DNA from: Planctomycetales bacterium
GTDB taxonomy: Bacteria; 4484-113
Assembly (NCBI GenBank): GCA_037441675.1
Contig: JBBIRS010000001.1
Coordinates: 101,428 to 165,427, forward strand
Direction of reading: 5' to 3'
Length of the DNA stretch: 64,000 nucleotides
Position 1 is the stretch's first letter; every line of letters starts with the position of its first letter. Below, in pieces: positions 17,520-58,303 of this stretch. The position numbers and the translations under genes were made by a program. The notes beneath the pieces are model-generated. The model had not been told where the DNA came from and searched no databases. It was given only the letters and a program-made list of their open reading frames with translations.

Positions 17520-17523
17520 CTTC

Positions 17524-18288: not shown

Positions 18289-18302
18289 GACATCTAGTTC
18301 AG

Positions 18303-39484: not shown

Positions 39485-39507
39485 GTTTATAGTAAGATTT
39501 ATTTGAG

Positions 39508-40749
39508 TTGAGCTTTCTTACCCCAAATTCTAAGGTTTTAATTGCTTTAACCGCATTCACAGGTGTCTTAGCACTCATATTTCAGGGGCACCTATTAGTC
39601 TACACCGGCATTTTGTTGTTGACCACATGTGTAACTCTCTTCATCTGGTCTTTCCAATGCACTAAGGGACTAACCATTGAGAGAGAACATACTCAAATAT
39701 GTATGAAGGGGCAGAACGTTTTAGTTACGTTAAAGCTCATAAACCGCAGCAAATATCCAAGATTTTTAGTCTTCGGATACGATTACTTTCCTGCCGAAAG
39801 AGCTGGAGACACTTATAAATCTGTTATCTTTCCATCGGTGGCAAAGCACTCTGAAGCCCTTTATAGATACCAAGCCTATGCAGCAAGACGAGGGGTTTAT
39901 AATGTGGGTCCATTTTATTTCTATTCAGGCGACCCACTCGGTTTCTTTCGCCATGTAAGAAAAGTTGATGTTTATACGAAGATTACGGTTGTTCCTGTTC
40001 CTCTGCCTACAAGGTTAAATTACCTACAGTCCCGTTCAAGGATCCAAAAGGACGAGTATTCAACCATTGCAGTTCCAGGTCAATCAACCGAATTTCTTGG
40101 AGTTAGGGAGTACCAGCATGGTGACCCACTTCGCAAGATTCATTGGATGTCCACTGCAAGGACAGGAGAGCTTATCACAAAGCAGTTTGAGAAAAACGTG
40201 GCTTCTTCGTTGTCCATACTGTTAATAAACTATCCAGAACTCTCAAATGGCAAATTTGAGGAGCATACACCCCTTGAATACTCCATAACCATAATCTCAA
40301 CTCTAGCCAACGAAGTCAGTCGTCGTAGAAGTTATGTTTCATTCAAAGAACTAAATGGGAACTCCCCTCGCTCTGCCTCGGGAATGGGTGAGAGCTTCTT
40401 TGAAACTCTCTCTTATACTTTAGCATCGGTCACAAAGGGGGAACCATTTGAGCTGAAAAGCTATTACGAAGAAATTATGCGTTCTTTACCTTCCAGCTCA
40501 GATTTAATAGTTATTATCCCAACGCTTTCCAGTATAGACGCTGAAATTCTCTCTCATTTGCGCCTGAATTTCAAAAGCTTATCAGTTCTTACCTTTGACT
40601 TAAATAGTTTTATCACTGCTGTTCCTAGAAGAGCAGAAAAAACCCGCTTTACCTTCGCAAGGAACTTTATGGCTTTTGAAATTGCATTTGGCGATGATTT
40701 GACTTCAAAGTTAGAACAATTTATTGGGAAAGCTGGTCTGATTAAATAG
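39508..40749 (+). CDS. DUF58 family protein (vWA-like), MoxR partner
   Basis: N-terminal TM helices; REYQHGDPLRKIHWMSTARTGELITKQFE core motif. Confidence 0.8.
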   Translation: MSFLTPNSKVLIALTAFTGVLALIFQGHLLVYTGILLLTTCVTLFIWSFQCTKGLTIEREHTQICMKGQNVLVTLKLINRSKYPRFLVFGYDYFPAERAGDTYKSVIFPSVAKHSEALYRYQAYAARRGVYNVGPFYFYSGDPLGFFRHVRKVDVYTKITVVPVPLPTRLNYLQSRSRIQKDEYSTIAVPGQSTEFLGVREYQHGDPLRKIHWMSTARTGELITKQFEKNVASSLSILLINYPELSNGKFEEHTPLEYSITIISTLANEVSRRRSYVSFKELNGNSPRSASGMGESFFETLSYTLASVTKGEPFELKSYYEEIMRSLPSSSDLIVIIPTLSSIDAEILSHLRLNFKSLSVLTFDLNSFITAVPRRAEKTRFTFARNFMAFEIAFGDDLTSKLEQFIGKAGLIK

Positions 40750-40752
40750 ATA

Positions 40753-43158
40753 ATGAGTACATCTCAGTTCACTGGCGTAATAGATAATAGGCGCAAAGGC
40801 GAAAGAATAGCGCTATTTCTAATAACCTGTCTGGCAAGCTTATTAGGCTTACATATCCTCGATCTTGGTCTTGACAACCTGCATTTCAAGTTAACGCTTG
40901 TGCCCATTCTAATAGCAGGTTTTGCCTTCAGTTACTCTCTTGACGAAAGGTACCATCGCGTCACCCGTGTAATCGTCAACATCCTTGCAGTCGTTTCAAC
41001 CTTCTATTTCTTTCGGCAGATAATTAACGACCCAACTTCCCTCGGTAACTGGTTGGGTATGCTACTTGGCGTCCTGATGGTTCTTCTCAGTTTTGTAGCG
41101 TTTGCACCGGTTACTCACAGGATGTTTGCAACCATTGGAATAGTCTTCACTCTATTTTCTGCAGCAGCTAGCTATGAGTTAAAGATTGTCATATTCTTTC
41201 CGATATTTATGGCATTAGCGGGGTGTCTTCTTTATTTTTCATATTCCTTGGAACTGGCTGAAAAGGCTCAGGGCTTTACCGTAAGTGAGGATAATCTCAA
41301 TGAGAAGGCATCTCTACGATGGTTCTCAGCTCTAAGAATTATCATTCAACTTGTGTTTGGTGTATTTATTCTGTCTATTATTGTTTACGTTATTGTTCCG
41401 CATTACACTGACGTTAACCGCCCAGCTTTTCTATTACCAAGAAGCGGAAGTCTTGGCGATACCTTTAATGCTCTTAACTTAGAAGACGGACTAGACGAAA
41501 CCGAAAGGACAGGTGAGGCATTGAATATCACTCGCTTTTCAGAGGAGTTTGATCTTTCCGGTTCTTCTTCAATCTTTGGTGATAGGCGATTGTTCGAGAG
41601 TGATGAGCCAGCCATTGCAATGCGTAGCTCACAAAATTCTTATCTCAGAGGAGTGGTGTTTGATCTTTACACCGGCAGGCGTTGGATGACTTCTACTGAT
41701 GCTGAAGCAGTTCGCATTAGACCGATCGGTGGTAGAAAATTTTATCTTCTCACAAACGTGTTCGGCTTCCCACTTTTGGATTTTCCCTCGCGTACACTAG
41801 AGAAAAATTACCTCTCTAGGATTAACGTCAGTGTAGTTGAAGGAAATCAATATTCATCAACTCAGAATATAGAACTAAATTATGACCTGCACACACAAGA
41901 AATTGAGTTTCTAAAGGATCATCCGCCAGTGATTTTCACTGCCTATCAACCAATTAGGATTGAAAACCTTAGCGCCGTTAGAAGGGCAAACGAACTGGCA
42001 GAAAGCCCCGTTCCCTTTATGGATGCTTTCTCTATCGTAAGAACTAGGCTTTCCAGACATCCCGCAGGATTTAGATACAATGCAACGGTCTTAAGCCCAA
42101 GGTATACTCGGTCAGCTTTAGTGCTAGCGGGTGATGGAGTTCCAGAAGGGATACGTAAGCTATACCTCCAGTTGCCGACCGAAGAGAATCTAAAAGCACT
42201 CAAAGAGATTTATGGTGATGATGTCGCGCCAGTATCCGAGAGAGTTCGTCGGCTAGCGAGAACGATAGTTTCCGAAAGCCAAAATGTTTACGAAAAGGTT
42301 CAAAAGATTTACGATTATCTAATGAGCGAGCTAACTTACACGCTGGACTTTCCTCCACTTCCAGCTGGAGCAGAAGCAACAGAGTACTTTCTTTTTAAGA
42401 CGCAGAATGGTTTCTGTATGCAGTTTGCTTCTGCAATGGCGGTTCTTTTAAGGCTCAATGACATACCCGCACGAGTGGTTGCCGGCTATGCTCCAGGACA
42501 ATATTCAATAATTCAGAACAAATATATATTCAAAGATAAAAATGCTCATGCGTGGGTGGAGGTATACTTTGATGGCATTGGCTGGGTGCCCTTTGACCCC
42601 TCACCAACCTCCTCGGATATCTTCACTCTTTCCGGTGTCAAGGCTATTGGTTCCACACTCCTTAATTTCCTTGAAAACCTCTTCGTAATTGACCCCCAAG
42701 GTGCTAGGCTTACCCTTTTGAAATTTCTTAAGGGCGTTTACACCATAATAGCGCCAATTGCGCTGAAGTTCTGGTATATTCCAGTGGTATTGGTTGGCTT
42801 CCTGCTCTTTTTAGTTATCGCTTTACATTTTCATAAAAGGATAAAAAGATTCAAACAGTTTTACGCCGAGAATGAAATAGTAGAATGCTTCAGAGAATTT
42901 CAAGAAACTCTTAGTAGATATGCAATGCCCCGTGAGGCTTATGAAACCGCTGGAGAATACTACGGAAGAATTTCTTATGTCTTTACTCCATTAAGGGACA
43001 GCTTAAAAGAATTTATTGACATCTACAGTCGAGCAGCATTCTCAGGAAGAATACCAACAGAACGGGATATCTCATTCGCTAGGGAATTCACTTCAAAGGC
43101 AAGGGAGTATATTGCCTCAGCTTCGGGGGACGAGATTAAAGATGCAAGTAGTATTTAA
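40753..43158 (+). CDS. membrane protein with a transglutaminase-like domain (TgpA-like) and a C-terminal DUF4129 domain
   Basis: Several N-terminal TM helices; Cys-His-Asp core FCMQFASAMAVLLRLNDIPARVVAGY...AHAWVEVYFDGIGWVPFDP; C-terminal TM followed by a DUF4129-like segment. Confidence 0.85.
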   Translation: MSTSQFTGVIDNRRKGERIALFLITCLASLLGLHILDLGLDNLHFKLTLVPILIAGFAFSYSLDERYHRVTRVIVNILAVVSTFYFFRQIINDPTSLGNWLGMLLGVLMVLLSFVAFAPVTHRMFATIGIVFTLFSAAASYELKIVIFFPIFMALAGCLLYFSYSLELAEKAQGFTVSEDNLNEKASLRWFSALRIIIQLVFGVFILSIIVYVIVPHYTDVNRPAFLLPRSGSLGDTFNALNLEDGLDETERTGEALNITRFSEEFDLSGSSSIFGDRRLFESDEPAIAMRSSQNSYLRGVVFDLYTGRRWMTSTDAEAVRIRPIGGRKFYLLTNVFGFPLLDFPSRTLEKNYLSRINVSVVEGNQYSSTQNIELNYDLHTQEIEFLKDHPPVIFTAYQPIRIENLSAVRRANELAESPVPFMDAFSIVRTRLSRHPAGFRYNATVLSPRYTRSALVLAGDGVPEGIRKLYLQLPTEENLKALKEIYGDDVAPVSERVRRLARTIVSESQNVYEKVQKIYDYLMSELTYTLDFPPLPAGAEATEYFLFKTQNGFCMQFASAMAVLLRLNDIPARVVAGYAPGQYSIIQNKYIFKDKNAHAWVEVYFDGIGWVPFDPSPTSSDIFTLSGVKAIGSTLLNFLENLFVIDPQGARLTLLKFLKGVYTIIAPIALKFWYIPVVLVGFLLFLVIALHFHKRIKRFKQFYAENEIVECFREFQETLSRYAMPREAYETAGEYYGRISYVFTPLRDSLKEFIDIYSRAAFSGRIPTERDISFAREFTSKAREYIASASGDEIKDASSI

Positions 43159-43900
43159 CGCGGATGACTTTGGCTTACATCCCGTGATTTCAGAAGGGAT
43201 ATTGAGGGCGCTTGATGCTGGTATCGTTCGTTCTACCTCGGTTCTGGCTACAACGGTAAGCTTGGATGAGCTAAACTCCTTTGAGAGGCTGAAAATAAGG
43301 GGAGGTTCTCTAGGCATCCATCTTTCCCTTACGCAGGGGAAACCCCTCACGGATTTTCCAGATGAATTTCTGAACGAAGACAAGAAATTCAAGAAAGAAA
43401 TTATGTTTTCTCCGATGGGTATTCCCCGTTTAGCCGAGGATATTCTTGAAAAAGAAATTCAAGCCCAGGTTGAAGCAATTATGCCATACGGTCCAACTCA
43501 CATTGATTCTCATCATCACATTCATTCGTTCCACTCAGTCCTTCAGATTGTTGCGAGATTCGCGCAAAAGTATGGCTTAGCGGTCAGAGCTCTTTCTGAA
43601 AGTATGCGCGGTTATCTTATCTCACAAGGGGTTCGATGCTGTGATGTTTTTATAGATGGCTTTTTTGGGAAAAATAACTTGACCGAGATGAAGTTACTAG
43701 CCTTGATAGAGGATGTATTACTTAAAGGCGCAAAAAAGGTAGAAGTTATGTGTCATCCTGGTTTCTCTAACAATCTCCCAAGGGGATTGACCTCATATGC
43801 AGATGAGAGAGAAATAGAACTCGGCATTCTAACCTCATCAGAACTTGCCAGCGAACTGAAACGAAGAGGGATTGAAATTATTAGCTATGACGCGGTTTAG
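43142..43900 (+). CDS. YdjC/ChbG-family carbohydrate deacetylase; its start overlaps the TgpA stop by 17 nt
   Basis: MQVVFNADDFGLHPVISEGILRALDAGIVRSTSVLATT, plus downstream His-rich metal-binding segments. Confidence 0.7.
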   Translation: MQVVFNADDFGLHPVISEGILRALDAGIVRSTSVLATTVSLDELNSFERLKIRGGSLGIHLSLTQGKPLTDFPDEFLNEDKKFKKEIMFSPMGIPRLAEDILEKEIQAQVEAIMPYGPTHIDSHHHIHSFHSVLQIVARFAQKYGLAVRALSESMRGYLISQGVRCCDVFIDGFFGKNNLTEMKLLALIEDVLLKGAKKVEVMCHPGFSNNLPRGLTSYADEREIELGILTSSELASELKRRGIEIISYDAV

Positions 43901-46556
43901 TATTTATCTAGAAGCTCTCGTAATCGTCACGGTTATGCCGTTATTCTTTTCTTGCGCTAGTGAAACTTCTGTGAGTGGCAGTAATCTTAGTTCTAGGGTT
44001 AATTATTCTCGACCTGGTGCCCATCCAATTGCGTCGGAACTTTCATCCCTAGACTCTGCGCTCAGGATTGGTTCATTCTATTTAATCTTTGGTAAGAATT
44101 CACCCTTGCGCGCAGAACTTGAGGAAGAAAATATAATTTTCTCTACCGTCTCAAGTGGCGAGCTTAGGATAAACGTAGTCCAGAAAATTTCATCCCCACT
44201 TGAATTTCAGATTTTATCTGATGATGGTTTAGTCGCGGATTACGTGTCTGTGATGAACATTGATGAAGCCGATCAGAGTACTTTTGGTGTTTTAATATCG
44301 GATGATAAGCGTGGTATTTCAGAGATTTATTTTTCGTCAGTAAGAAGGGCGGAAGTTCCTCCATCAACACTACTTGTAATTTTTAGAAAGCAGGCTTCGC
44401 ATGAAAGAAGTATAAGCTACAAGGTATTTGGCAACCCTGTGGGAAAAGCTTCATCCAAAGTCGTCTCTAGGGCATTTGAAGGTTCTAAAAACCAAGTTAC
44501 AGACCTTTCAGCCTCACCATCAGATGGCGGCTTTAGCCTCAGATGGAAAGAAAAAAATAAGGGTGATTACAACAATGACGGGAAAGTGACAATTGCAGAC
44601 GTTAGACCATTAGCTCTTCATTTTTTCCACACTTCTCCCTATAACGGAAATGAGCCAAGAGATGCGCTGGACGCATTAATTGATGGAAATGAGGATGGCG
44701 AAATCGACATTCAAGATGTTCAAGAAATTGCTCTGAACTTCTTTTCCTTCATAGCTGGCTATGATGTGTTCATTGTTCCACTTGAGTCTATTGATGATGA
44801 AGTAACTGAGAAGGATTTTCTCGCAAGTGGCTCAATTGCCAATCCGTACGATCCCAATAATCCACGTCCCACTGTTCCTCGTAGCAACTTCTACACAGAT
44901 GGGCTACCTCCAAGCGAATTAATAGAATACACCTTTAATTATCCACTTTCTCCGGGTATTTACGCCGTTGCAGTTCGCTCTTATTCCGATGAAGATGATA
45001 ACTATGATAGCGTCCCATTTTCCAACTTTGAGAAGTTTGAGATTTCTTCACTGCCGGTAAATCAGCCTCCACAGTGGACAAACCCCTCGGAGCCTGGCGT
45101 GTTGAGTTTTACCTCCCTAGATGGCGGGGCTAGAATAACCTTTGGTGATTCTTTTGATCCTGACGGTGATGAAATTATTTATAGAATTTTCATCAAGCAA
45201 GGACCATCACTTGATCCTTCTGACCCAACGGTAACAAGAATTGATGTTCTAAGAAGCGACTTGACGAGTACCCAAACACCCCCATTCACTTACGACGTAG
45301 GTGCTCTTGTTAATGGCTTATTTTACTCAGCAATGGTTAGAATTTACGATGCACATGGATTGGAAGAGAGCCCACCCAACTCAGTTGTTGCAACTTTTGT
45401 TCCACATTCAAGTGCCCCAAATCCCCTCCCCTGGCCATACTTTAGAAAGGATGAAGCAAGAACAGGGTTAAGTGTGTTGAATTCTCTACATGAGCCGCTG
45501 GAGGAAGTTTGGCGCAGAACTTATAAGGATTTCGGGTCTTTTAGCGGTGCTTCACCAGTGTTGGATGAAGCACTGGTTTATATAGCTTCCGTAGATGGCG
45601 CAGTTTGGGCTTTTGACCAGATTACTGGTGAGCTCAAGCTGAAACAAACTTTATCTCCAGGTTCAATTGAATCGACAAGCGCACTTTACGGCGATTACCT
45701 TATTCAAGGCGTGAGAGGCAGGTATCTCATCCTAACACGAGATGAAGATGGGGGTATGGTTCAGTTTTCACAATTCTCACTTGAGAGTCCTCTCGTGGTT
45801 CATTCGTCGCCGGTGATTATTGGTGGACTCATTTATGCAGGCAGTAACGAAGGCGATGTTTATGCGTTCAGCCTAGACGGTTTTCAACTCTGGAGGCAAG
45901 ACCTAGGAGTTAGCAGGATTTCTTCAAGCCCCACTACCGACGGAGAGTTCTTATACGTGGCGAACGACGAAGGTTTTGTTTTCAAACTGAGCTTGGATAG
46001 CGGTGAAATCGTAGATTTTTCCAACGACCTTGGGGATATTAGCTTTACTTCTCCTATCCCATTTCCACCTGAAAATCCAAGTTACATTCTAATCGGAAGC
46101 GACTATGATGGGCAGGGGGATAATGGTGTTTTTAGGCTTAATGCCCAAGATTTCAAGGATTCAGTCAAGCTTGCGACCAATCGCGGTATTAGGTGCACGC
46201 CGTTGGTTATCCAAAATGGCGCTACTACAACAGTTGTCGTAGGCGACTTCAACCCAGGGCTTGTTCCTGATCCAGAAACCAGGATTTACGCGTTTAACCT
46301 GGAAACTGGCGAAAAACTTTGGGAAACTCCTCCAACAACAAATATCGGAGGAGTAGTTTCATCTCCGGTTGCGACGGGGGACAGAATCTTTGTAGCTACT
46401 GCTACTGGGTTACTCTATGTTTTTGATTATGATGGAAACCAAATGGGGCAGGCCCTGAATGTCGGAGGGGCAGTTTACACTACACCTGCGATTAGAGAAA
46501 ATTGGATTTACCTCACGAATAGCCTAGCCGAGATAGTGGCTTTTAGAACCCAATAA
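43872..46556 (+). CDS. secreted, possibly lipoprotein, multidomain protein: dockerin-like Ca-binding repeats, an FN3-like region and a PQQ/BamB-like beta-propeller
   Basis: Signal peptide ending ...LFFSCAS; dockerin-like GDYNNDGKVTIADVRPLALHFF and DGNEDGEIDIQDVQEIALNFF; repeated PQQ-type blades such as ALVYIASVDGAVWAFD, GLIYAGSNEGDVYAF, EFLYVANDEGFVFKL and RIFVATATGLLYVFD. Confidence 0.6.
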   Translation: MKLLAMTRFSIYLEALVIVTVMPLFFSCASETSVSGSNLSSRVNYSRPGAHPIASELSSLDSALRIGSFYLIFGKNSPLRAELEEENIIFSTVSSGELRINVVQKISSPLEFQILSDDGLVADYVSVMNIDEADQSTFGVLISDDKRGISEIYFSSVRRAEVPPSTLLVIFRKQASHERSISYKVFGNPVGKASSKVVSRAFEGSKNQVTDLSASPSDGGFSLRWKEKNKGDYNNDGKVTIADVRPLALHFFHTSPYNGNEPRDALDALIDGNEDGEIDIQDVQEIALNFFSFIAGYDVFIVPLESIDDEVTEKDFLASGSIANPYDPNNPRPTVPRSNFYTDGLPPSELIEYTFNYPLSPGIYAVAVRSYSDEDDNYDSVPFSNFEKFEISSLPVNQPPQWTNPSEPGVLSFTSLDGGARITFGDSFDPDGDEIIYRIFIKQGPSLDPSDPTVTRIDVLRSDLTSTQTPPFTYDVGALVNGLFYSAMVRIYDAHGLEESPPNSVVATFVPHSSAPNPLPWPYFRKDEARTGLSVLNSLHEPLEEVWRRTYKDFGSFSGASPVLDEALVYIASVDGAVWAFDQITGELKLKQTLSPGSIESTSALYGDYLIQGVRGRYLILTRDEDGGMVQFSQFSLESPLVVHSSPVIIGGLIYAGSNEGDVYAFSLDGFQLWRQDLGVSRISSSPTTDGEFLYVANDEGFVFKLSLDSGEIVDFSNDLGDISFTSPIPFPPENPSYILIGSDYDGQGDNGVFRLNAQDFKDSVKLATNRGIRCTPLVIQNGATTTVVVGDFNPGLVPDPETRIYAFNLETGEKLWETPPTTNIGGVVSSPVATGDRIFVATATGLLYVFDYDGNQMGQALNVGGAVYTTPAIRENWIYLTNSLAEIVAFRTQ

Positions 46557-46679
46557 CAGTCAGCATTTTCAATTACCGCTAACTAAATCGTGTAATGATA
46601 CTCCTCATTTTGTAATAATGCCCTAAAGCTTTAAACTTTACTAATAGTTTTTTAGCCAATATACTAATAAATAATCAGG

Positions 46680-47426
46680 ATGAAGTACGCTCTGAATGCG
46701 CTGGATTTTGTGGGTGGCTTAGGTGTGTATTTGTGGAGGACTTTATACTTTCTCGCCACAGGGAAACTTAACTACAGACTAACTACTCGCCAAATGGATC
46801 TGCTCGGGATTAATTCAGTTCCCCTTGCTATGTTAGTATTAGCTTTTGTCGGGGCGACTGTAACTTATCTACTCGTTGAAGAACTTGGTAAACGTGGTCT
46901 TAGTTCTTACATTGGTGGATTTCTTCTCGTGGGATTACTGAGAGAACTTATCCCAATACTTACCGGGGTTGTTTTGGCAGGCAAGGCTGGAGCTGCAATT
47001 ACTAGTGAAATTGGGTCGATGAAAATAACCTCGCAGATTGATGCCCTTGAAGCGCTTTCCACTGACCCACATTGGTTTCTAACCGCTCCCCGAGTAATAG
47101 CTCTTATCATCACAACACCTGTAGTGGGAACGTTTGCAGGTTTTGCTGGTTTTTATGCTGGCTACTTTATGGTTTACGCCAAGCTTGGTATGCCATTTGC
47201 GGGTTATGTCGCTAATATAGATAAGTTTGTAACTGATAACGACTTCTTTGCCTGTTTAATAAAGCTCATTATCTTCGGTGCCGTTGTAGCTATAACTGGC
47301 TGTTTTATGGGCTATCGCGTGGAAGGTGGCGCTGAAGGCGTGGGCAAGTATGTCACATTGTCTGTTGTCTTGAGTATAGTTTTAATCTTTGGCCTTGACC
47401 TTCTCTTATTGCCAGTACTATTTTAA
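46680..47426 (+). CDS. mlaE: MlaE-family ABC transporter permease
   Basis: YrbE/MlaE-like topology and conserved N-terminal LDFVGGLG...[13 protein letters not shown]. Confidence 0.8.
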
Positions 47427-47427
47427 G

Positions 47428-48210
47428 ATGTTGGAACTTAGAAAAGTTAGCGCTGGCTATAATGGCCAGGTAGTCCTTAAAGATATTAACCTAAATGTCC
47501 CCGAGCAAAGCATAACTGCCATCATAGGAACTTCTGGCTCCGGCAAAAGCACTCTCTTGCGAGTGATAATGGGCTTCTTAAAGCCTTACTCCGGAGAAGT
47601 GCTCGTTGATAACGAAGACATAGCAAATAGTAGCCCCGCTTCAGTTGCCAAGCTTCGGGAGAAGATGGGATTGGTTTTCCAGGAGCTAGCTCTCTTTGAT
47701 TCATTAACGGTGGAAGAAAACGTTGCTTTCTACCCACATTACCGCCAGAAACGCAAATGGAGGGAAGTTGTCCCCCTTGTGAAAGGGATACTAAAGGAGT
47801 TGGGTCTTGAAGGTTTGGAGAAGAAATATCCTTCAGAGCTTTCGGGGGGAATGAAACGGAGGGTTGCAATTGCCCGTTCTCTCATATATCGCCCAAAGAT
47901 ACTACTTTACGATGAACCAACAGCTGGTTTGGATCCTACAACAACCGCATTGGTTAACGACCTAGTTGTTGAAATGCGCACCAAGTTCAAGGTCAGCTCC
48001 TTAATCGTGACTCACGATTTGGAAAGTGTTCTTAACATTGCGGATAATGTTTATCTACTATCAAATGGCACTGCCAGTTTTATTGGCGCTCCCATATCAC
48101 TGCTTGTTAGCAATGACGAGCGGGTGGTTAAATTTACCGCCTCTTGGCGTAAGTATTTCAGAGAAATCCAAGGTATAGTTGAAAGAGAGGAGAGTGGAAC
48201 CATCAATTAG
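47428..48210 (+). CDS. mlaF: MlaF-like ABC transporter ATP-binding protein
   Basis: Walker [13 protein letters not shown] signature LSGGMKRR and Walker B LLYDEPT. Confidence 0.85.
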
Positions 48211-48229: not shown

Positions 48230-49573
48230 ATGAGAGGCATATCGGAACAGGTGAAAATTGGAATTTTTATTGTTATTGCGGTTGGATTAGCCTACTTCGG
48301 CTACAACTCAGTTATAAAAATTACAAAACCTAGTACTTACTCAGTTAAAGTTGAATTTAAGGATGCACGTGGAATTTCAAAAGGGACGCCTGTGCGTCGG
48401 GCGGGAACCGACATTGGCTGGGTAGAAAGTGTTAGCCTTGATTCGGAAAGGGGAATCGCCGTTGCTGACGTTAGGATATTATCAAGAGCAACATTTCCCA
48501 AAGATGCCATATTCTACATAGTTTCGGAAGGGTTGATTGAGGAAAAGTTTCTCCTGATTCGTGATAGTCCAAAACCCACTCCTGGACTTGGATACGCTGA
48601 GGAAGGAGATATTTTTCAGGGTGAGCTTGCCCCAGGCTTTACCGATATACTGAGAAGCGCAAACGAGGCACTAATACAAGTAAACCGAATACTGAATGTA
48701 GCTGGCTCCTTTATGAGTGAAGAAAAACTGGGAGGAATAGTTCAGGAGCTACTTTCTGAGCTTAATTCTACTATAGGTTCAGCGAGGGTAGTTTTGGAGC
48801 GAATAAGCTCGCTTCTAGGCTCAACTCAAGGAGATATAACCGATACAGTTAAAAATATTCAACAAGCCACTTCCGACTTGAGCGAGGTTTCAAGGGAAGT
48901 TAAGTTAGCGGTTCAACAGACCGACTTACCAAATAGAGTGGAAGCACTTCTTATGCAGATTGATGCTAGCCTTTCTTTGATAAATAAAATCGCCTCAGAT
49001 ATAGCAGAGCTTACCTCTGATGAGCAGTTCAAGGACGATATTAAGGGGGTTTTCCATGAGGGGAAAGAAGCTCTGACGGAAAGTAAAGAAACCCTAAAAA
49101 CGCTGAGGGGAACTTTAGAGAAGGTGGACAAAAAGCTAGAAAGATTTGGAGGTTTGGGGTTTGAGGGAAAGTTGAATATTAGAAATGAAAGTACTCACAA
49201 TAAGAGTAGAAGTGATAATGCCTATATTGATGTCAAAACGAGGGTAACTGTGGGTGAAAATAGCCTTGACCTCGGTGTAGAAAATCTTAGCGAAGACACC
49301 CCTGAAGACGCAGGAATGGTTCTACAAGTTGGAAAGAAAGCTGGGGATTCTATTCTTGTTCGTGGAGGGGTTTATCGTGATGAGCTTGGAGTAGGTGTTG
49401 ATCTTTTTGGTGGAGATTCTGTTTCGCTCTCATTAGATGCTTTTAATCTAAACAATCCCGCTCTGAATTCATATCTCACTTTACCCTTTCCGCGTAGGTT
49501 CAAACTTCTCCTGGGAGTGGAGGATGTAGGAGACCGCAATCAATACAACGCAGGTATACAGGTGCACTTTTAG
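48230..49573 (+). CDS. mlaD: MlaD-like MCE-domain protein with a long helical extension and a C-terminal beta-rich segment ending in Phe
   Basis: N-terminal TM helix; MCE domain YSVKVEFKDARGISKGTPVRRAGTDIGWVESVSL; about 250 aa of coiled coil; C-terminus ...YNAGIQVHF. Confidence 0.75.
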   Translation: MRGISEQVKIGIFIVIAVGLAYFGYNSVIKITKPSTYSVKVEFKDARGISKGTPVRRAGTDIGWVESVSLDSERGIAVADVRILSRATFPKDAIFYIVSEGLIEEKFLLIRDSPKPTPGLGYAEEGDIFQGELAPGFTDILRSANEALIQVNRILNVAGSFMSEEKLGGIVQELLSELNSTIGSARVVLERISSLLGSTQGDITDTVKNIQQATSDLSEVSREVKLAVQQTDLPNRVEALLMQIDASLSLINKIASDIAELTSDEQFKDDIKGVFHEGKEALTESKETLKTLRGTLEKVDKKLERFGGLGFEGKLNIRNESTHNKSRSDNAYIDVKTRVTVGENSLDLGVENLSEDTPEDAGMVLQVGKKAGDSILVRGGVYRDELGVGVDLFGGDSVSLSLDAFNLNNPALNSYLTLPFPRRFKLLLGVEDVGDRNQYNAGIQVHF

Positions 49574-49576
49574 GTC

Positions 49577-52500
49577 GTGAAAAAAAAACCTAAAATACCT
49601 CGCTTCATCATCATTCTGTTCTCGTTTCTACTCATACTTTCTTCTGTTCTCTTATACCTTCTTTGGCTGAAAGTTCCGAAAATATTGGAGGAGAAAACAA
49701 AGGCGCTGATAAACGATTTTGTGCAGAAAAGCGAAATTGGAGAGCTTAAATTCGATTCAATAAGCCTTAGACTTGCTTTTCCATCTTCAATTATTCTAAG
49801 AAATGTTGAATTAAGAATACCAGAGCAAAATGAATCGCTTCTCACTGCCAAATCAGTTAGGCTGAGCTTACCTCTCGTTAAAGTCCTAAGGGGAAAGTAT
49901 CCAATCAATGTCAACTTAACTTTTGAGAAAGCAAAAATCACGATTCACTACTTTGGCAATGGTAAATTCAGCATTTCCCCTATGATCGAAAGCTTGCTGA
50001 GAAAAAAGAAAAAGGTCACAGAAGTATCGAGTATTCGAGCGTCTTCTCAAAACTTATCTATGATAATCTTGATGGATGAGGGTAGTTCTTCTGATATCTC
50101 AACTGCTATAAAGAATAATATTTTGCCTAGAAGGGCTTCCCTGCTAAAGAACTTAGACAAGATTTCTAAAATGTATCATGTAAAGTGGGAAGGGGGAGCG
50201 GTTTCAATAGTTGACGAACTATTAACGAGTTTGAGTTTTATTAAACCACGAAAGGCTGTTAACTTTAATCTCACATTTAGCTTCAATCATATCTTCCAAA
50301 CGGGAATGAGCTATGTTCACCTGCGTTTAACCTCTCCTGTTAAAGCTGAATTCAAATCAACCCTTTCCTTTATATCAGGGAAGTATGAAATCAACGGGAA
50401 AGTGAATGAGTTAATACCTTCAGATTTGCCATTGTCTCTTCCAAGAATTTTAGAAAAATCGATGGAAAAGACTGTCTTGTCTCTTTCCGGCGTTCAGATT
50501 AGTATTTCACCTAAAAAGAGAAAAGTGTTGTTTGATACTCTGCTAAAAGACCTCACAATTCCCCTTGGCGGTAATAATGAGATAAAAGTGCCAACTATTA
50601 CGGTAGTGAAAAAGGCGCAAGGATATTTTCTTAAAAGTAAGCTAAGCATAGTTGAAGGCATAGCTGATGTAAGTTTAACTTGGGGCAAAACTCCACTCCT
50701 AGCGCTTAAATTCAACGATTTTCCTTTCAGCAGTATTGCGAAATCAATCGGTGCCTTTAGTGTTGCCTCTATGGATGGAGAGCTAACGTTGAAAAAGACG
50801 AACTCCCAATGGTTGAGTAACCTTAACCTCAATCTAACGGACTTAGAAGCAGAGACTAAAAAAGTTTTGGACATACTAGAACTAAAGGGTCAGGTTTCTA
50901 ATCAATTAAATCTAAGGCTAAATGGTTTTAAGCAAAGAAGGAGGAATTTCTCCCTACTTGTAAGTGGTAATAGCAAAGCTTTCAAATATAAAGCTAGTTT
51001 CTCCTTCACAGGGGGGGAAATAGATTTAGCTCAAAGTATCCAATTAGAATTCCCTATATCCCTCTCTCATTTACATGGGCTCACAGAGGGGGAGATAAAG
51101 ATTTCTCCCCTTCGTATTGAAGGGTCATTTAAGGATACAAGGGCAGAATTTCCCGATTTTTCGGTTCTTTTAAGTAAGGGAGAAGTTTCAATTACCTCTC
51201 AAGCATTTTCGCTCTCACTCAGTGAAGGTGCGCTAATTTTATCTGCTCCATTCAAAGACCAGCATATCCTTCAAGAGTTGTTGCCCACAAGATTCAAATT
51301 AGCAGGTGGTTTCTTTGGAAGTAGAAAGAAGGATTCTTGGCAATTTGGCTGTAATTTATCTGGCGAAGGAAAAGGCTTGAAGTTCCCAATTAGATACAGA
51401 CTTGAAGCTAAAGGCGAAGCCTCTGAGATAAAAACAAACCTGACATTTTATGGTTTTTTTCGTGATGAACCTCTTTTTGGCGTGGCAAACGCCATCGCTA
51501 CTTTCGCTGGCTTAAAAGGCTTCTCCCTTGAGGGTAACCTTGGGAGAACAGAGTTTACCGCGTTTGGTGATATTCCCATTGGCGGTTCATTAAATCTGGG
51601 CTTCAACGCACGTGGCGTGCGCTTTAACGTAAACAATGCAATTGTGAAGCAAATAGGGGAAGCAACTATAGGTGGGCAAGTATCAGGAACTTGGTCAAAG
51701 CCGATTATCTCCGCCATTATTAGTATTCCTAGGGTGTATCTTAGAGAGATAAAATCCGCCGATAAAGAATTTAGCCTTATACGAAACGTTAGCCTGCCAA
51801 TCAGCTGGAATAATAATCAATTAACTTTTCACGAGGGCACCTTCTTTTATAATGGCTCTCTCTGTTACTTTCAAGGCATAGTTCAAGGGGGAAAGTCAGA
51901 TTTCAGCATAACCTCACCAGCTTTTAGCCTAGCTCCTGTTTTGAAAGCGCTCTTCGTAAATCAAACATTTCAATGGGTCGGTAATGGCGAATTTTCAGCT
52001 AGGATAATTTCTCAGAACTCTTCCACTATCTATAAAGCTTCCTTTTCGCAGAGAACGGGAACGTGGGAAGATGTTGGCATTAAGCGAGTGAACTTTCGCA
52101 TAAGTGGCGATAACAACCATTTACGGGTTAGTCAAGGAGAGATTAATCTTGACAAAGGGGGAGCTAAAATCTCAGGCATCCTTTATTTTGGAAGTGGGCG
52201 AGAAAGTGAAGTCACTGCCATATTTGATGATTTCCCATTGTTCGCCGACTTGAGAGGTGCAATAGTCACCCCCTTCAGTGACATTAAAGGTTATCTCTCA
52301 GGCACTATTAGGCTAGCTAATGTTGGTGGTGAATTTCTTGTCTCTGGTGACGTTTCATTGCGCGATGCAAAACTTCTTGGAACTAATTTTGATACGTTTA
52401 AGGTACGCTTTTTCCAGGAAAGAAATGGCGTTCAAATTGATGAATTAGTTCTTTTTAATAACGAGAACTACCTACAAGGTTACGGCTTTTGGGGGGAGAA

Positions 52501-54223
52501 CCCCGCAGATACATTGATAAACCTAGAGGTTCCCCTTATCAATATGGCAATCTTTTCGCCATTTGTTCCAGTTTATCTTTCCCCACTGGAAGGGAATTTT
52601 GGAGCAAATTTAGTCGTTAGACAGAGAAAAACTGGTGAAGCCGAGATAGTGGGAAGTTTCCAGAGCGCTGGAGAGCGGGTTAAACTTGCAGGAGTTGAAT
52701 TTGACAGAATCGAGGGGAGACTGCGTTACTTTAACGGCGTCATTGAAGCTGATAACATTGCCTTAAGGATGGGTTCTTCTAACCTAAAGGCTAGTGGGTC
52801 AATTCCAATTGTCAAGGGTAGCAGGAATCTTCACTTGAGTATAGAAGCAAGTAAGCTAAGTGCTCAATCTATTACCGAAACTCTTCACTATAACAATTTC
52901 AAGAGCGATGGTTATGTGTCTTTTAACCTATCAGTAAGTGGAAGCCTAGAACATCCAGAGTTTGCAGGGACAGCTCTTCTCAATTTGCAGGACGTTCGCA
53001 TACTTGACTTAATTTCACTTCCACGGTTGGATGGTGATTTTCGGATTGAAGAAAATGAGGTATTTATTGATTCACTCAGGGCTTATACTGCCACGCCACC
53101 CATAAACGTGAAAGATGAAGGAAGTTTTGCTGAAGTATCAGGGAAGCTTAAACTTGATCCGTCGCAGAGTAGTATTGACTCAGCTAACCTCATTATTCAA
53201 CTTGATGATACGAACTACATCAAAGTCAAGGGTTACATTGATGGCGGTCTTTCGGGTAGATTGCAACTGGTGAAGCTATCTTCAAAGGATGCCCCCTTGT
53301 TACAAGGTGAAGTAACGCTAAAGAAAGGCTCTGAAGCGAGAATACCTTCCTTACCGCTATCCGCAGTGCCAATCCTTAATAAGGATGCACTGTTAGACAT
53401 TTCACTTACCGTTGAGAAATCCAGCCTCCTAAAGTATCCAGCTGGCGCAATGGAGGCAGAGTTCTATGGAGCTCTCAAGCTTAACGGGTCTCTGTCCTCT
53501 CCACTAATCACAGGCGAACTTATCCTGCCATCTGGTTCAATGGTGGTTTATCATCATTTAGTTCGTCTTATTGAACCAGCGACCATTACATTTTCTCCCG
53601 GTGCTGGCTTTATACCCTTTATAACCGGTGTTGCGTCAACGCATATTCCGGGTGTCCTTGCAGAAACAGCGTCTCCTGTGGTAGATGAGGCAGCTTCCCA
53701 TTTGCTACCTATGTTTCCCCATGCTGATTCAGACCTTACAATTTTCTTCCACTTCAACAACCTGCTTACAGAGGAATCTCTAAATGCAGTTCAGCTTTCA
53801 TCTTCTCCTCCCCTTCCGCAGGAAACCATTCGTTCTTATCTTGTAGGCGAGATGCCGGGGCAGGTCACTAGGAGCTCGCTTGAAACATTGGTGGAAAAGG
53901 AGGCATTGCTCTTTTCTTCAAGCAGATTGTCCAGGTTCCTAGAGGAAACCTTAGAATTCAAAAGATTTGAATTGAGAGCCTATTCAACGCGGGAGGGTAC
54001 TCCACTATACCTAAATGTTGAAAAGAATCTAACAAGTGAGTTATCAGCAAGGTATCTGCAGACCTTCTTTACTACGCTTGACGAGAGGCAAGAACTTGCT
54101 CTCAAATACTTAATTAACAAGAATCCCGCTTATCGCTCATCTCTGGAGGTGTTATTAAGAAGAAGAGCTCAGTTACAGGAAGAATTTGCTATAAATGCTG
54201 AAATTGAACGAAAATTCAAGTGA
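49577..54223 (+). CDS. TamB/AsmA-like giant protein (1548 aa) with an N-terminal TM anchor and a DUF490-like C-terminus
   Basis: Single N-terminal TM helix, a very long beta-rich body, and a C-terminal segment ...YLNVEKNLTSELSARYLQTFF... typical of TamB; 3-nt gap after mlaD. Confidence 0.65.
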   Translation: MKKKPKIPRFIIILFSFLLILSSVLLYLLWLKVPKILEEKTKALINDFVQKSEIGELKFDSISLRLAFPSSIILRNVELRIPEQNESLLTAKSVRLSLPLVKVLRGKYPINVNLTFEKAKITIHYFGNGKFSISPMIESLLRKKKKVTEVSSIRASSQNLSMIILMDEGSSSDISTAIKNNILPRRASLLKNLDKISKMYHVKWEGGAVSIVDELLTSLSFIKPRKAVNFNLTFSFNHIFQTGMSYVHLRLTSPVKAEFKSTLSFISGKYEINGKVNELIPSDLPLSLPRILEKSMEKTVLSLSGVQISISPKKRKVLFDTLLKDLTIPLGGNNEIKVPTITVVKKAQGYFLKSKLSIVEGIADVSLTWGKTPLLALKFNDFPFSSIAKSIGAFSVASMDGELTLKKTNSQWLSNLNLNLTDLEAETKKVLDILELKGQVSNQLNLRLNGFKQRRRNFSLLVSGNSKAFKYKASFSFTGGEIDLAQSIQLEFPISLSHLHGLTEGEIKISPLRIEGSFKDTRAEFPDFSVLLSKGEVSITSQAFSLSLSEGALILSAPFKDQHILQELLPTRFKLAGGFFGSRKKDSWQFGCNLSGEGKGLKFPIRYRLEAKGEASEIKTNLTFYGFFRDEPLFGVANAIATFAGLKGFSLEGNLGRTEFTAFGDIPIGGSLNLGFNARGVRFNVNNAIVKQIGEATIGGQVSGTWSKPIISAIISIPRVYLREIKSADKEFSLIRNVSLPISWNNNQLTFHEGTFFYNGSLCYFQGIVQGGKSDFSITSPAFSLAPVLKALFVNQTFQWVGNGEFSARIISQNSSTIYKASFSQRTGTWEDVGIKRVNFRISGDNNHLRVSQGEINLDKGGAKISGILYFGSGRESEVTAIFDDFPLFADLRGAIVTPFSDIKGYLSGTIRLANVGGEFLVSGDVSLRDAKLLGTNFDTFKVRFFQERNGVQIDELVLFNNENYLQGYGFWGENPADTLINLEVPLINMAIFSPFVPVYLSPLEGNFGANLVVRQRKTGEAEIVGSFQSAGERVKLAGVEFDRIEGRLRYFNGVIEADNIALRMGSSNLKASGSIPIVKGSRNLHLSIEASKLSAQSITETLHYNNFKSDGYVSFNLSVSGSLEHPEFAGTALLNLQDVRILDLISLPRLDGDFRIEENEVFIDSLRAYTATPPINVKDEGSFAEVSGKLKLDPSQSSIDSANLIIQLDDTNYIKVKGYIDGGLSGRLQLVKLSSKDAPLLQGEVTLKKGSEARIPSLPLSAVPILNKDALLDISLTVEKSSLLKYPAGAMEAEFYGALKLNGSLSSPLITGELILPSGSMVVYHHLVRLIEPATITFSPGAGFIPFITGVASTHIPGVLAETASPVVDEAASHLLPMFPHADSDLTIFFHFNNLLTEESLNAVQLSSSPPLPQETIRSYLVGEMPGQVTRSSLETLVEKEALLFSSSRLSRFLEETLEFKRFELRAYSTREGTPLYLNVEKNLTSELSARYLQTFFTTLDERQELALKYLINKNPAYRSSLEVLLRRRAQLQEEFAINAEIERKFK

Positions 54224-54230
54224 GGATAGG

Positions 54231-54659
54231 ATGGAGACCAAATTCGAATACAGTGATTACTGCTTTGCTTGCGGTGGCTTAAATCCTCTAGGTTTGCACT
54301 TGCAATTCTCTTTTGAAGATGGCAAGTTAAAGACCGAATTTCTTCCCCATCAACAATTTCAAGGCTATCAAGGATTGTTGCACGGCGGACTTGTTTGCAC
54401 GATTCTAGATGAGTTGATGGTTCACTTAGTAACTCGTCTCTTTAGTAAGGTTGTGGTGACTGCTGAGCTTTCAGTTCGGTTCAAGCGTCCTGTGGAAGTT
54501 GGCAGATTACTAATTGCACAAGCAACTTTAATTAAGCATCGGAAGAAGGTTTATCATTGCACGGGAGAGCTCCTTGAAGCTGAAAACTCTAACCTTATCG
54601 CCGAGGGTAAAGCAATGCTGGTAGAACCTGCGTCACATACTGAAGTTAATGTATGCTGA
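54231..54659 (+). CDS. hotdog-fold thioesterase (PaaI/4HBT-like); start at METKF, overlapping the tamB-like gene's 3' end
   Basis: GLLHGGLVCTILDELMVHLV motif and hotdog length. Confidence 0.65.
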   Translation: METKFEYSDYCFACGGLNPLGLHLQFSFEDGKLKTEFLPHQQFQGYQGLLHGGLVCTILDELMVHLVTRLFSKVVVTAELSVRFKRPVEVGRLLIAQATLIKHRKKVYHCTGELLEAENSNLIAEGKAMLVEPASHTEVNVC

Positions 54660-55275
54660 ACTTTCCTCCTTCTATCATATAAAGTTGCTCCAGGTTTCTA
54701 ATCCCCAAATGATCAAGGTAGCTTAACATTCTGCTGAGAATTCTTGCAGTTGCCAGTGCATCACCGTAGGCTCTATGCCTATCCCTTACGTCAAAACCTA
54801 GAAAAGTTGCGATAGTTCCAAGGTTATAGCCCGGAAGCCAGGGGAAGATTCTTCTTGCGAGTTTTCTCGTGCACAAAACACCGTTTCTAATCTGTTTATT
54901 CAAGTGCTCATTGCAGGCAAGTCCAAGAAGCTGGGTATCAAAACTTGCATTGTGCGCAACTATGATTGCACCTTCAAGAAATTCTAATAGTTCAGCTATT
55001 ATCTCTTTGATGGTAGGTTTACCAGCCACCATCTCATTAGTAATGCCTGTTAATTTAGTTATAAAGGGTGGAATTGGCTTTTCGGGGTTAACCAAAGTGT
55101 GGTAGTGCTTCTCAATTTGGTTTCCCCGCATTAAGAAGCCAGTAATTTCTATAATCCGCTCGTAAAGTGGATTTCCACCCGTGGCTTCAATATCAATGAC
55201 CGCGAAGAGAATATGAAAAAGGGTGCCATCCTCAGTGGATGTACTATTTACGTATGAAGCATTCATTACGGACAC
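54646..55275 (-). CDS. DnaQ-like 3'-5' exonuclease (DEDDh)
   Basis: Exo I FAVIDIEATG, Exo II AIIVAHNASFD and Exo III HRAYGDALATARI. Confidence 0.8.
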   Translation of the reverse strand: MSVMNASYVNSTSTEDGTLFHILFAVIDIEATGGNPLYERIIEITGFLMRGNQIEKHYHTLVNPEKPIPPFITKLTGITNEMVAGKPTIKEIIAELLEFLEGAIIVAHNASFDTQLLGLACNEHLNKQIRNGVLCTRKLARRIFPWLPGYNLGTIATFLGFDVRDRHRAYGDALATARILSRMLSYLDHLGIRNLEQLYMIEGGKFSIH

Positions 55276-56632: not shown

Positions 56633-58303
56633 TTAAATATTACCACTTACTTTCAGTCCGTATTTCTTAGCGGTAGCAATTGCTTCCTCATATCCCGCAT
56701 CTGCGTGGCGCATAATTCCTGTCCAGGGGTCAGAATTTAGCACCTTCTCAATCTTTTTCGCCTGCTCATTGGTCCCATCTGCGACAACGACCATTCCAGC
56801 GTGAAGCGAGTAGCCTATCCCAACACCGCCTCCATGGTGAAAGCTTACCCAACTTGCTCCACATACCGCATTTAATAGCGCATTGAGCACAGGCCAATCT
56901 CCAATAGCATCACTTCCATCCTTCATTCCCTCTGTTTCACGATTTGGACTAGCCACGCTACCCGAATCAAGATGGTCTCTTCCTATAACGATAGGCGCTT
57001 TGACCTTACCCTTTTTGACTAGCTCGTTGAACAAAAGCCCAGCCTTATCCCTCTCATAATATCCCAACCAGCATATCCGTGAAGGTAATCCCTGAAACTT
57101 AACTTTCTCTCCCGCCAGCTTAAGCCATCTTTTCAGATGCTCTTTCTCTGGGAAAAGTTCTGCAAGAGCTCTGTCGCTTTCTTATATATATTGAGGATCA
57201 CGTCAAAGTGCACCCCATCTAAATGGACCCTCACCACGGCAGAATAGTGGTCTTATATAAGCCTGCACGAAGCCGGGGAACTTAAATGCATCCTTTAGCC
57301 CTCTATTTTCCGCCACCTGCCCACGAATATTGTTCCCGTAGTCAAATACAACAGCTCCGCTATCTTGAAAAGCAAGCATTGCTTTCACCTGTTTTGCCAT
57401 GCTATCGTAGGCAAGCTCACGGTACTTTTCCGGTGACGTGTGTCGAAGTTCTAGCGCCTCTTCATAGGGAATACCTGCAGGTACATAGCCATTCAGCTCA
57501 TCATGGGCGCTTGTTTGGTCAGTGACCACATCCGGGATAATCCCCCTTCTCACAAGCTCCGGATGGGTATCTGCGGCATTAGCAGTTAGTCCAATTGAGA
57601 GAGCCTCACCTTTTTCTTTCGCCCTCAAAGCCATTTCCACCGCTTCGTCAAGATTGTCTGCAACCGTATCCAAATACCCTGTTTTCAGCCTTCGTTCAAC
57701 TCTATCCTTATCAACCTCAACGCAAATACCGACACCACCGTTCATAGTTATTGCTAAAGGTTGAGCACCACCCATTCCACCAAGACCTGCGGTCAGAACA
57801 AGCTTGCCCTTTAGGCTTCCATCAAAATGCTTATTAGCCACAGCGGCTAATGTTTCATACGTTCCTTGCAGGATTCCTTGGGTGCCAATATAAATCCAGC
57901 TCCCGGCGGTCATCTGGCCAAACATAGTCAAGCCCATTCTCTCGTATTTTCTGAAATTCTCCCAAGTTGCCCAAGCGGGGACAATAACACTATTCACTAT
58001 CAAAACTCTTGGCGCCCATTCGCTGGTTGGGAATATGCCCACCGCCTTTCCTGATTGGACCAAAAGGGTTTCGTCGTTTTCAAGATGCCTTAGCGCTCTT
58101 AATATCCCTTCAAAGCATTCCCAATTTCTTGCAGCTTTTCCAGTCCCGCCATAAACAATAAGCTCTTCAGGCTTTTCAGCAACTTCAGGGCTTAAGTTGT
58201 GCTGTATCATTCTATAAGCCGCCTCTTGCACCCACCCCTTGCAGTTAAGTTGATTTCCAGTAGGGGGGGTAACCACTCGGTGTTCTGTCTTCATCATAGC
58301 CAT
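56633..58303 (-). pseudogene. hutU: urocanate hydratase (hutU) interrupted by two in-frame stop codons
   Basis: N-terminal ORF 57203-58303 and C-terminal ORF 56633-57067 are in the same frame and together align to full-length urocanase (...[36 protein letters not shown]...). TGA at 57203-57205 replaces a Ser codon and TAA at 57182-57184 replaces a Tyr codon. Confidence 0.75.

Follow-up and report, generated by a model that had tools for sequence, protein, structure and literature searches.

Gene content and organization of the locus

The 64,000-nucleotide stretch of DNA analyzed here (hereafter the window), from contig JBBIRS010000001.1 of the Planctomycetales bacterium assembly GCA_037441675.1, carries on its forward strand the genes of a Mla-type lipid transporter (mlaE, mlaF, and a long mlaD), followed by a gene for a very divergent member of the TamB family and by a gene for a small hotdog thioesterase. 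We read the region as a tightly packed five-gene operon of a diderm, uncultured bacterium, mlaE-mlaF-mlaD-tamB-thioesterase, in which the thioesterase is a passenger or loosely linked enzyme rather than a dedicated part of the transport system, and we consider this reading, taken as a whole, to be likely. After start corrections, the intergenic gaps along the five genes are 1, 19, 3, and 7 nucleotides (nt). The features of the locus, with protein lengths in amino acids (aa), are as follows.

46637 to 46665, forward strand: candidate sigma-70-like promoter TTTACT-17-TATACT, from a consensus scan (9/12 matches), within the 123-nt gap 5' of mlaE; a positional candidate only.
46680 to 47426, forward strand: mlaE, ABC permease, 248 aa (Pfam MlaE, E 1.5e-61; TIGR00056 MlaE family, E 6.8e-54).
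47428 to 48210, forward strand: mlaF-like ABC ATPase, 260 aa (Pfam ABC_tran, E 1e-37; MlaF model PRK11831, E 5e-51, below the equivalog cutoff).
48230 to 49573, forward strand: long mlaD, 447 aa (Pfam MlaD at residues 36-108, E 4.7e-13; predicted transmembrane helix, MCE domain, helices, and 10 C-terminal strands).
49571 to 49579, forward strand: mlaD-tamB junction, TAG stop, 3 nt, GTG start (from the sequence; kept in relatives).
49577 to 54223, forward strand: TamB-family AsmA-like protein, 1548 aa (PF04357, profile comparison, AlphaFold/Foldseek).
54221 to 54233, forward strand: tamB-thioesterase junction, TGA stop, GAGGA Shine-Dalgarno site, 7-nt gap, ATG (from the sequence and orthologue starts).
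54231 to 54659, forward strand: hotdog thioesterase (TIGR00369 / THEM2-PaaI-like), 142 aa (Pfam 4HBT, TIGR00369, PDB matches).
54646 to 55275, reverse strand: convergent DEDD exonuclease gene, overlapping the thioesterase 3' end by 14 nt.

In the list of open reading frames (ORFs), the same genes appear as a run of co-directional forward-strand ORFs at 46680-47426, 47389-48210, 48230-49573, 49577-54223, and 54195-54659. The start of mlaF is most likely the ATG at 47428, 1 nt past the mlaE stop, rather than the longest-ORF TTG at 47389, because orthologue gene calls start 2 nt past mlaE. The longest thioesterase ORF starts at ATG 54195, which gives a 29-nt overlap with tamB, and no Shine-Dalgarno site is present there. 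An in-frame ATG at 54231 lies 7 nt past the tamB TGA (54221-54223) with GAGGA in front. At nine orthologous loci, the thioesterase starts 9-18 nt past the tamB stop, mostly behind a GGAGG-like site, and the orthologue N-termini align with the 54231 start, about 8-13 residues ahead of an invariant D-x-D-[YF]-CFACG motif. Because both the orthologue starts and the GAGGA site support ATG 54231, we place the thioesterase gene at 54231-54659, without overlap with tamB; the overlap reported in a preliminary description of this DNA, made from the sequence alone, was an artefact of taking the longest ORF.

The unit is taken to end at the thioesterase gene because the convergent exonuclease gene overlaps its 3' end. 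Based on the spacing, co-transcription of all five genes is very likely. The thioesterase gene would almost certainly be co-transcribed with tamB, since only 7 nt separate the two, the thioesterase gene has a Shine-Dalgarno site of its own, and a convergent gene lies downstream of it. The Rfam scan returned two tRNAs and nothing else. Antisense ORFs within tamB (49570-49941, 50494-50874, 51448-51717, and 53554-53760) were taken as chance ORFs in a conserved coding region.

A very divergent member of the TamB family

The tamB ORF (49577-54223, forward strand) opens with GTG, and by our estimate the chance probability of an open frame of 1548 codons at 42% GC is about 1e-41. Its product has a single hydrophobic segment at residues 5-37 (Kyte-Doolittle 2.87), and the N-terminal pattern of basic and then hydrophobic residues is kept in the orthologues. 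At the other end of the protein, PF04357 (TamB/DUF490) matches residues 1402-1523 with an E value of 3.1e-14 (53.5 bits versus a cutoff of 22.4; profile positions 235-365 of 381). When the lineage profile was aligned with a proteobacterial TamB profile by hhalign, residues 617-1522 matched positions 489-1284 at 99.7% (E 6.9e-26), and the lineage profile also matches the E. coli TamB chain 9xdc_B in the PDB (E 1.5e-6). The AlphaFold model of residues 849-1548 is nearly all beta (mean predicted local distance difference test (pLDDT) score 80.9, predicted template modeling score 0.69), and its best Foldseek matches in the PDB are TamB 9xdc_B (E 1.2e-8) and 9xdd_B, both from TamAB complexes, and the beta-taco fragment 5vtg. 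These results bear out what had been proposed for this gene, namely a TamB/AsmA-like protein of 1548 aa, encoded 3 nt past mlaD, with an N-terminal transmembrane segment and a C-terminal DUF490-like domain; the domain analysis places it in no unrelated family. The NCBIfam TamB equivalog NF047952 was missed by a wide margin (21.1 bits versus a cutoff of 825). We conclude that the large protein is a very divergent TamB family member by profile and fold, and not an orthologue-level equivalent of E. coli TamB.

The divergence is also apparent from the homologue searches. A word-index search with the TamB protein returned only the self-match, and a HMMER search with residues 350-1548 against 1.84 billion representatives gave only 77 matches at E<1e-3, headed by seven full-length orthologues with 26-40% identity. 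A profile built from the orthologues and the more distant matches brought in 118 further proteins, mostly annotated as TamB_N, DUF748, or TamB, enterobacterial TamB included. A weak GspN/T2SSN match at the N-terminus was attributed to the AsmA-like similarity known for this region and not taken as a sign of a type II secretion component.

Among the distant homologues, P0115, P0121, P0125, P0126, and P0211 (2100-2230 aa) contain TamB, POTRA, and Omp85 (Bac_surface_Ag) domains in one polypeptide and, judging from this domain content, appear to be TamB-BamA/TamA fusions. In one relative (L013, CAZXPM010000019.1, 5911-10503), the tamB frame is broken, with the first possible start about 1.2 kb past the mlaD stop and a product of 1115 aa, which is probably due to a frameshift or an assembly error in that metagenome-assembled genome (MAG).

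The Mla transporter and its predicted elongated MlaD

The Mla ABC transporter genes that the preliminary description had placed upstream of tamB are indeed there: the MlaE permease (E 1.5e-61), the ABC ATPase, and the MCE-domain protein MlaD are encoded together in one operon, with gaps of 1 and 19 nt. MlaE is 66-76% identical to its counterparts in lineage relatives. The equivalog cutoffs for MlaE, MlaF, and MlaD were all missed, and no mlaA, mlaB, or mlaC gene was found in the operon or in the 64-kb window.

In the AlphaFold model of MlaD, a transmembrane helix (residues 6-31) is followed by the MCE domain (pLDDT 82-90), by helices spanning about 170 residues (137-304) at low confidence, and by 10 C-terminal beta strands (309-446, pLDDT 62-75), the chain ending in IQVHF with a C-terminal F. 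Foldseek aligned the MCE domain with E. coli MlaD structures (5uw8/8hq9) at template modeling scores of 0.85-0.88 and about 2 Å, and also with mycobacterial Mce1. The family PF27164 (Aq_493_lipo) is found at the C-terminus of the MlaD orthologues and also in the 430-aa MlaD of a Negativicute-like locus (L016). In the 419-aa MlaD of V. parvula, the transmembrane and MCE domains are followed by an extended helical region and then by a ten-strand barrel that was shown experimentally to be in the outer membrane (PMC10665443). As modeled, the window MlaD is of the elongated type and follows the same plan as V. parvula MlaD.

The mlaD-tamB junction and its conservation

The mlaD stop codon TAG (49571-49573) and the tamB start codon GTG (49577) are separated by 3 nt (GTC). 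An mlaD stop, 1-3 nt, and then GTG are found in eight of the nine species-level lineage loci, the window counted. Such a spacing is typical of the classical geometry for termination-reinitiation coupling. The earlier statement that tamB is translationally coupled to mlaD thus holds for the geometry, from which we infer the coupling itself. If so, TamB synthesis would depend on the translation of mlaD, and two opposing lipid flows would therefore be made in a fixed ratio. The conserved stop/GTG junction offers a clean, testable case of translational coupling of two opposing lipid transporters.

The lineage loci were drawn from look-ups of the encoding contigs, a scan of GTDB species representatives with the lineage TamB alignment, and a metagenome scan. 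They form 15 species-level clusters (the window and 14 relatives), in some of which short or truncated contigs hold only part of the locus. Across these clusters, the order mlaE-mlaF-mlaD-tamB-thioesterase is found wherever the contig reaches, with tamB and the thioesterase gene adjacent in 15/15, and it is kept despite the divergence of TamB to 22-37% identity. The convergent exonuclease gene (exo) and the nth gene that follows it are as well conserved in the lineage loci as the thioesterase gene. The lineage is thus broadly syntenic in this region, and conserved adjacency alone therefore cannot separate functional partners from neighbours. The GC content of the window is 42%, compared with 50-62% in the homologous loci of relatives (L001-L024).

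Regarding the identity of this lineage, MlaD homologues at 45-64% identity include one from the MAG 'Planctomycetales bacterium 4484_113' (51%), and the GyrA encoded in the window is 67% identical to the GyrA of the same MAG, which we take to be the namesake of the GTDB phylum 4484-113. Judging from these identities, the lineage probably belongs to this phylum, listed as Ca. Niteriota (PMC11382960).

The thioesterase and its relationship to tamB

The thioesterase matches Pfam 4HBT (PF03061) with an E value of 8e-11 (42.5 bits versus 20.6) and passes the TIGR00369 model with 40.0 bits versus a cutoff of 36.6. On the other hand, it missed the PaaI equivalog TIGR02286 (19.5 bits versus 118.9), and no paa genes were found in the window, so that the original designation as a PaaI-type thioesterase is appropriate at the level of the family and domain but not at that of the equivalog. 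The best PDB matches are THEM4, THEM2, and PaaI-related chains (E 1e-5 to 6e-5). Ten residues are invariant in 10 thioesterase orthologues (C11, F12, A13, C14, G15, H51, G52, G53, D60, and T77), and these include an HGG-x6-D motif (H51, G52, G53, and D60) and T77, kept in 10/10. We assume the HGG, D, and T residues to be catalytic by analogy with human THEM2 and THEM4. No signal peptide, transmembrane helix, or hydrophobic segment was found in the protein, which is predicted to be a functional cytosolic acyl-thioester hydrolase with an intact active site. A zinc ribbon was considered for the N-terminal CFACG motif and dropped, as only two cysteines are conserved, and an identity as FapR (E 2e-4, 21 bits versus 183) was rejected, as the protein has no DNA-binding domain.

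The position of this enzyme could be explained by a dedicated role, in which a third module, a cytosolic thioesterase for acyl-CoA or for acyl-ACP (ACP, acyl carrier protein), tunes the acyl supply or recycles acyl chains from lipids returned by Mla, in parallel to YbgC. In each of the 15 species-level clusters, the gene immediately follows tamB, at a distance of 7-18 nt. No other gene comes between it and the convergent gene, and the invariance of its HGG...D...T motif implies that it has been selected as an enzyme. A hotdog thioesterase in an envelope operon also has a precedent in YbgC of tol-pal (PMC5479800). However, YbgC falls into another hotdog subfamily and is itself of poorly defined function, and the adjacency to tamB is limited to one lineage, in which synteny is kept just as well for exo and nth, two unrelated genes.

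The distribution of related thioesterases outside of this lineage argues in the same direction. A metagenome scan with the thioesterase alignment gave 465 confirmed relatives. Among the best 80 of these, tamB lies upstream only in the first six, which have 41-49% identity and all belong to this lineage, whereas the other 74, at 32-43% identity, have no tamB or mla gene within reach. Recurrent neighbours of those other relatives are FAD-binding, LysM, 2-hydroxyacid dehydrogenase, Ser/Thr kinase, UbiE, and UbiA genes. At ten loci of a second lineage (metagenome contigs L041, L044, L049, L060, L065, L067, L069, L074, L084, and L086), an nth/HhH-GPD gene lies directly upstream of the thioesterase gene on the same strand. 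The thioesterases beside nth in that lineage are 33-36% identical to the one studied here, and the order in the window lineage is thioesterase, exo (reverse strand), and nth. The recurrence of thioesterase-nth proximity apart from tamB hints that the older neighbourhood of the thioesterase may have been with nth and not with tamB.

The tamB side gives a comparable picture. No thioesterase gene was found at 7/7 distant tamB loci, of which one shows the Negativicute pattern, four have an adjacent Omp85 gene, and two have neither. We conclude that the tamB-thioesterase pairing is specific to this lineage, and the absence of a thioesterase from the other tamB loci, the Negativicute-type cluster included, also speaks against a dedicated module. 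The preliminary description had called this tight organization characteristic of outer-membrane lipid homeostasis clusters in diderm Terrabacteria, which the comparison does not bear out as a general statement: the Negativicute version has tolC and a bamA/skp/lpx cluster and no thioesterase, and in Halanaerobiales and the other lineages sampled, tamB stands beside an Omp85 gene instead.

A further explanation is that the enzyme is a housekeeping thioesterase of an aromatic or menaquinone pathway, such as the TIGR00369 members MenI/YdiI, EntH, and PaaI, that merely shares the tamB transcript. It passes the TIGR00369 domain model, which presumably also covers PaaI, EntH, and YdiI, and relatives at 32-38% identity adjoin genes for UbiE-type methyltransferases (9 loci) and UbiA prenyltransferases (4 loci). 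These neighbours are, however, confined to distant relatives, no quinone-pathway genes lie within the 64-kb window, the PaaI equivalog was missed as given above, and the PDB chains matched best are those of THEM4 and THEM2, which are thioesterases for fatty-acyl-CoA. We regard such a pathway role as quite unlikely.

Overall, we clearly favor the thioesterase as a lineage-specific passenger or loosely linked housekeeping enzyme over a dedicated transport part, which we hold to be unlikely although it deserves to be kept in mind. The proposal of a single lipid-trafficking gene set is accordingly retained in part: the five genes lie so close together that they probably form a single transcription unit, whereas the case for including the thioesterase in the set comes from adjacency within one lineage, where exo and nth are kept equally. 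A role for the thioesterase in lipid trafficking is a cheap hypothesis to test, and at present the enzyme is only a neighbour.

Proposed model for lipid exchange

Based on these gene identities, we propose a scheme in which MlaFE would act as an inner-membrane ABC transporter and the long MlaD would supply an MCE ring, a tunnel of helices, and a beta-barrel in the outer membrane. With MlaFE, a MlaD hexamer would make a three-component trans-envelope Mla conduit of the V. parvula type, with no need of MlaA, MlaB, and MlaC, that would return phospholipid from the outer to the inner membrane (retrograde). The TamB-like protein, anchored by one inner-membrane helix, would extend a predicted hydrophobic beta-taco groove across the periplasm, along which phospholipid would be carried outward (anterograde). 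The V. parvula locus has mlaEFD ahead of tolC and tamB. An mlaD mutant of this organism is sensitive to detergent and hypervesiculates, and both defects are suppressed when tamB is lost; mla and tamB thus act antagonistically there (PMC10665443).

The TamB-like protein could instead serve mainly in the assembly of outer-membrane proteins or autotransporters, the classical role of the translocation and assembly module (TAM), in which case the linkage to mla would reflect general envelope biogenesis and not balanced lipid flows. Its membership of the TamB family and the Omp85 gene beside four of the seven distant homologues are consistent with such a role. Nevertheless, no adjacent Omp85 gene was found here or in any lineage relative, tamB is locked to a lipid transporter instead, and the genetics of V. 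parvula tie tamB and mla together via lipid homeostasis (PMC10665443). Taken together, these observations make a main role in protein assembly improbable.

A more far-reaching version of the scheme is that MlaD, with its barrel, and TamB are physically joined in a single trans-envelope machine working in both directions, in which the MlaD barrel, and not an adjacent Omp85 protein, would help to dock TamB, the junction would fix the stoichiometry, and the thioesterase would be a dedicated third component adjusting or recycling acyl chains at the inner-membrane end. We mention it as a speculation that has very little chance of being correct in full.

Several points weigh against our favored reading of a five-gene operon for opposing lipid flows with a loosely linked thioesterase. 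The promoter scan of the region gave 20 sigma-70-like sites versus 22.5 expected from shuffles, and thus no excess, and the terminator scan gave counts at the level of the shuffles, which were not taken as evidence. The barrel region of MlaD was modeled as a monomer and at a pLDDT of 62-75 only. No Omp85/POTRA protein was found among the scanned ORFs of ≥120 aa of the 64-kb window, nor in the lineage loci. The direction of lipid flow is carried over from other organisms, and the placement in the phylum draws on the 67% GyrA and 51% MlaD identities to the 4484_113 MAG. Finally, a true partner would also be expected to show what the thioesterase shows throughout the lineage, namely a gene placed immediately after tamB at a short distance and catalytic residues that are kept.

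Other features of the window

Directly 5' of mlaE lies a gene for a PQQ/BamB-like beta-propeller protein (43872-46556, forward strand) with a weak dockerin match. The propeller protein has 779-1374 aa, and its gene is directly 5' of mlaE in most lineage loci (e.g., L001, 5958-8297; L005, 4261-8385); it is missing in the locus of the 4484_113 MAG, where gyrA takes the neighbouring place. Further upstream, a co-directional block on the forward strand (38486-43900) encodes a MoxR AAA+ ATPase, a DUF58 protein, a transglutaminase-like membrane protein (TgpA_N/Transglut_core/DUF4129), and a YdjC-family deacetylase, and this block is kept 5' of the propeller gene in relatives.

At 36087-37763 (forward strand), the window encodes a 558-aa protein with a signal peptide, an SLH domain at residues 25-67, a coiled coil, and a beta-rich C-terminus ending in LLHF, which by these features looks like an OmpM-type outer-membrane tether. 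Tethers of the OmpM type are typical of diderm Terrabacteria (PMC10628300), and the presence of an OmpM-like SLH protein in the window would thus fit a Terrabacteria-type envelope.

The urocanase gene hutU (56633-58303, reverse strand) contains two in-frame stops, TGA at 57205-57203 and TAA at 57184-57182, in an otherwise well-conserved frame, while its relatives encode an intact protein of 525-557 aa. Either the gene has recently become a pseudogene or the sequence contains a local error. Four ORFs of 477, 254, 557, and 284 aa at 16086-19976 and 23824-24678 (both on the reverse strand) have no Pfam match at E<1e-4.

Comparison with known systems

The large protein shares with E. coli TamB (PDB 9xdc, 9xdd, and 5vtg) a single N-terminal anchor, the beta-taco groove fold, and the C-terminal DUF490 domain. 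However, it is about 290 aa longer, it is only about 13% identical in the hhalign alignment, and it is encoded with mla and not with tamA, with no Omp85 gene in the window. With the E. coli MlaFEDB-MlaC-MlaA system, the locus has in common the MlaE permease, a MlaF-like ATPase, and the MCE domain of MlaD. It differs in the absence of MlaB, MlaC, and MlaA from the window operon and in the length of MlaD, which has 447 aa here, with a predicted helical needle and barrel, compared with 183 aa in E. coli.

For the thioesterase, the closest parallel is YbgC of the tol-pal operon (PMC5479800), likewise a small cytosolic hotdog thioesterase in an envelope-maintenance operon, with a role that is poorly understood. 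Nevertheless, YbgC belongs to the 4HBT class, while the window enzyme is THEM2/PaaI-like (TIGR00369). YbgC is also encoded by the first gene of tol-pal, unlike the position found here, and is widespread in Proteobacteria, whereas the tamB-linked thioesterase is limited to one lineage. Our literature search found no paper joining TamB, a thioesterase, an AsmA-like protein, and an operon.

The closest known arrangement is the mlaEFD...tamB locus with a long, barrel-bearing MlaD documented in diderm Firmicutes (Grasekamp et al. 2023, PMC10665443), where the mla-tamB arrangement is reported in the main text for Negativicutes only. The Negativicute-like locus L016, which we recovered among the distant tamB loci, has the order mlaE-mlaF-mlaD-tolC-tamB-...-bamA-ompH-lpxD. 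As in these bacteria, tamB in the window is preceded on the same strand by mlaE, mlaF, and a long mlaD, and the operon has no mlaA, mlaB, or mlaC. The predicted plan of MlaD is also shared (a transmembrane helix, the MCE domain, long helices, and a 10-strand C-terminus; 447 aa here, 419 aa in V. parvula, and 430 aa in L016), and TamB is comparable in size and likewise has an anchor at the N-terminus and a DUF490 domain at the C-terminus. On the other hand, tamB directly follows mlaD here, at 3 nt, while a tolC/OEP gene stands between them in Negativicutes. The flanks here are the PQQ-propeller gene and DNA-repair genes, with no OEP, Omp85, OmpH, or Lpx gene near the window operon, and there they form a large bamA-skp-lpxD outer-membrane cluster. 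Only the locus studied here has a hotdog thioesterase behind tamB, and it comes from a different, uncultured phylum, with a TamB that is only about 22% identical.

The components of the locus are thus all of known kinds, and the linkage of mla and tamB with a bridge-type MlaD has already been published. This linkage has been taken to indicate that the flows of phospholipid in the retrograde (Mla) and anterograde (TamB) directions are regulated together. The present results extend it past the diderm Firmicutes to a second, uncultured lineage, probably of phylum level, in a tighter form than in Negativicutes, and support the view that the three-component MlaEFD system with a barrel-bearing MlaD is widespread.

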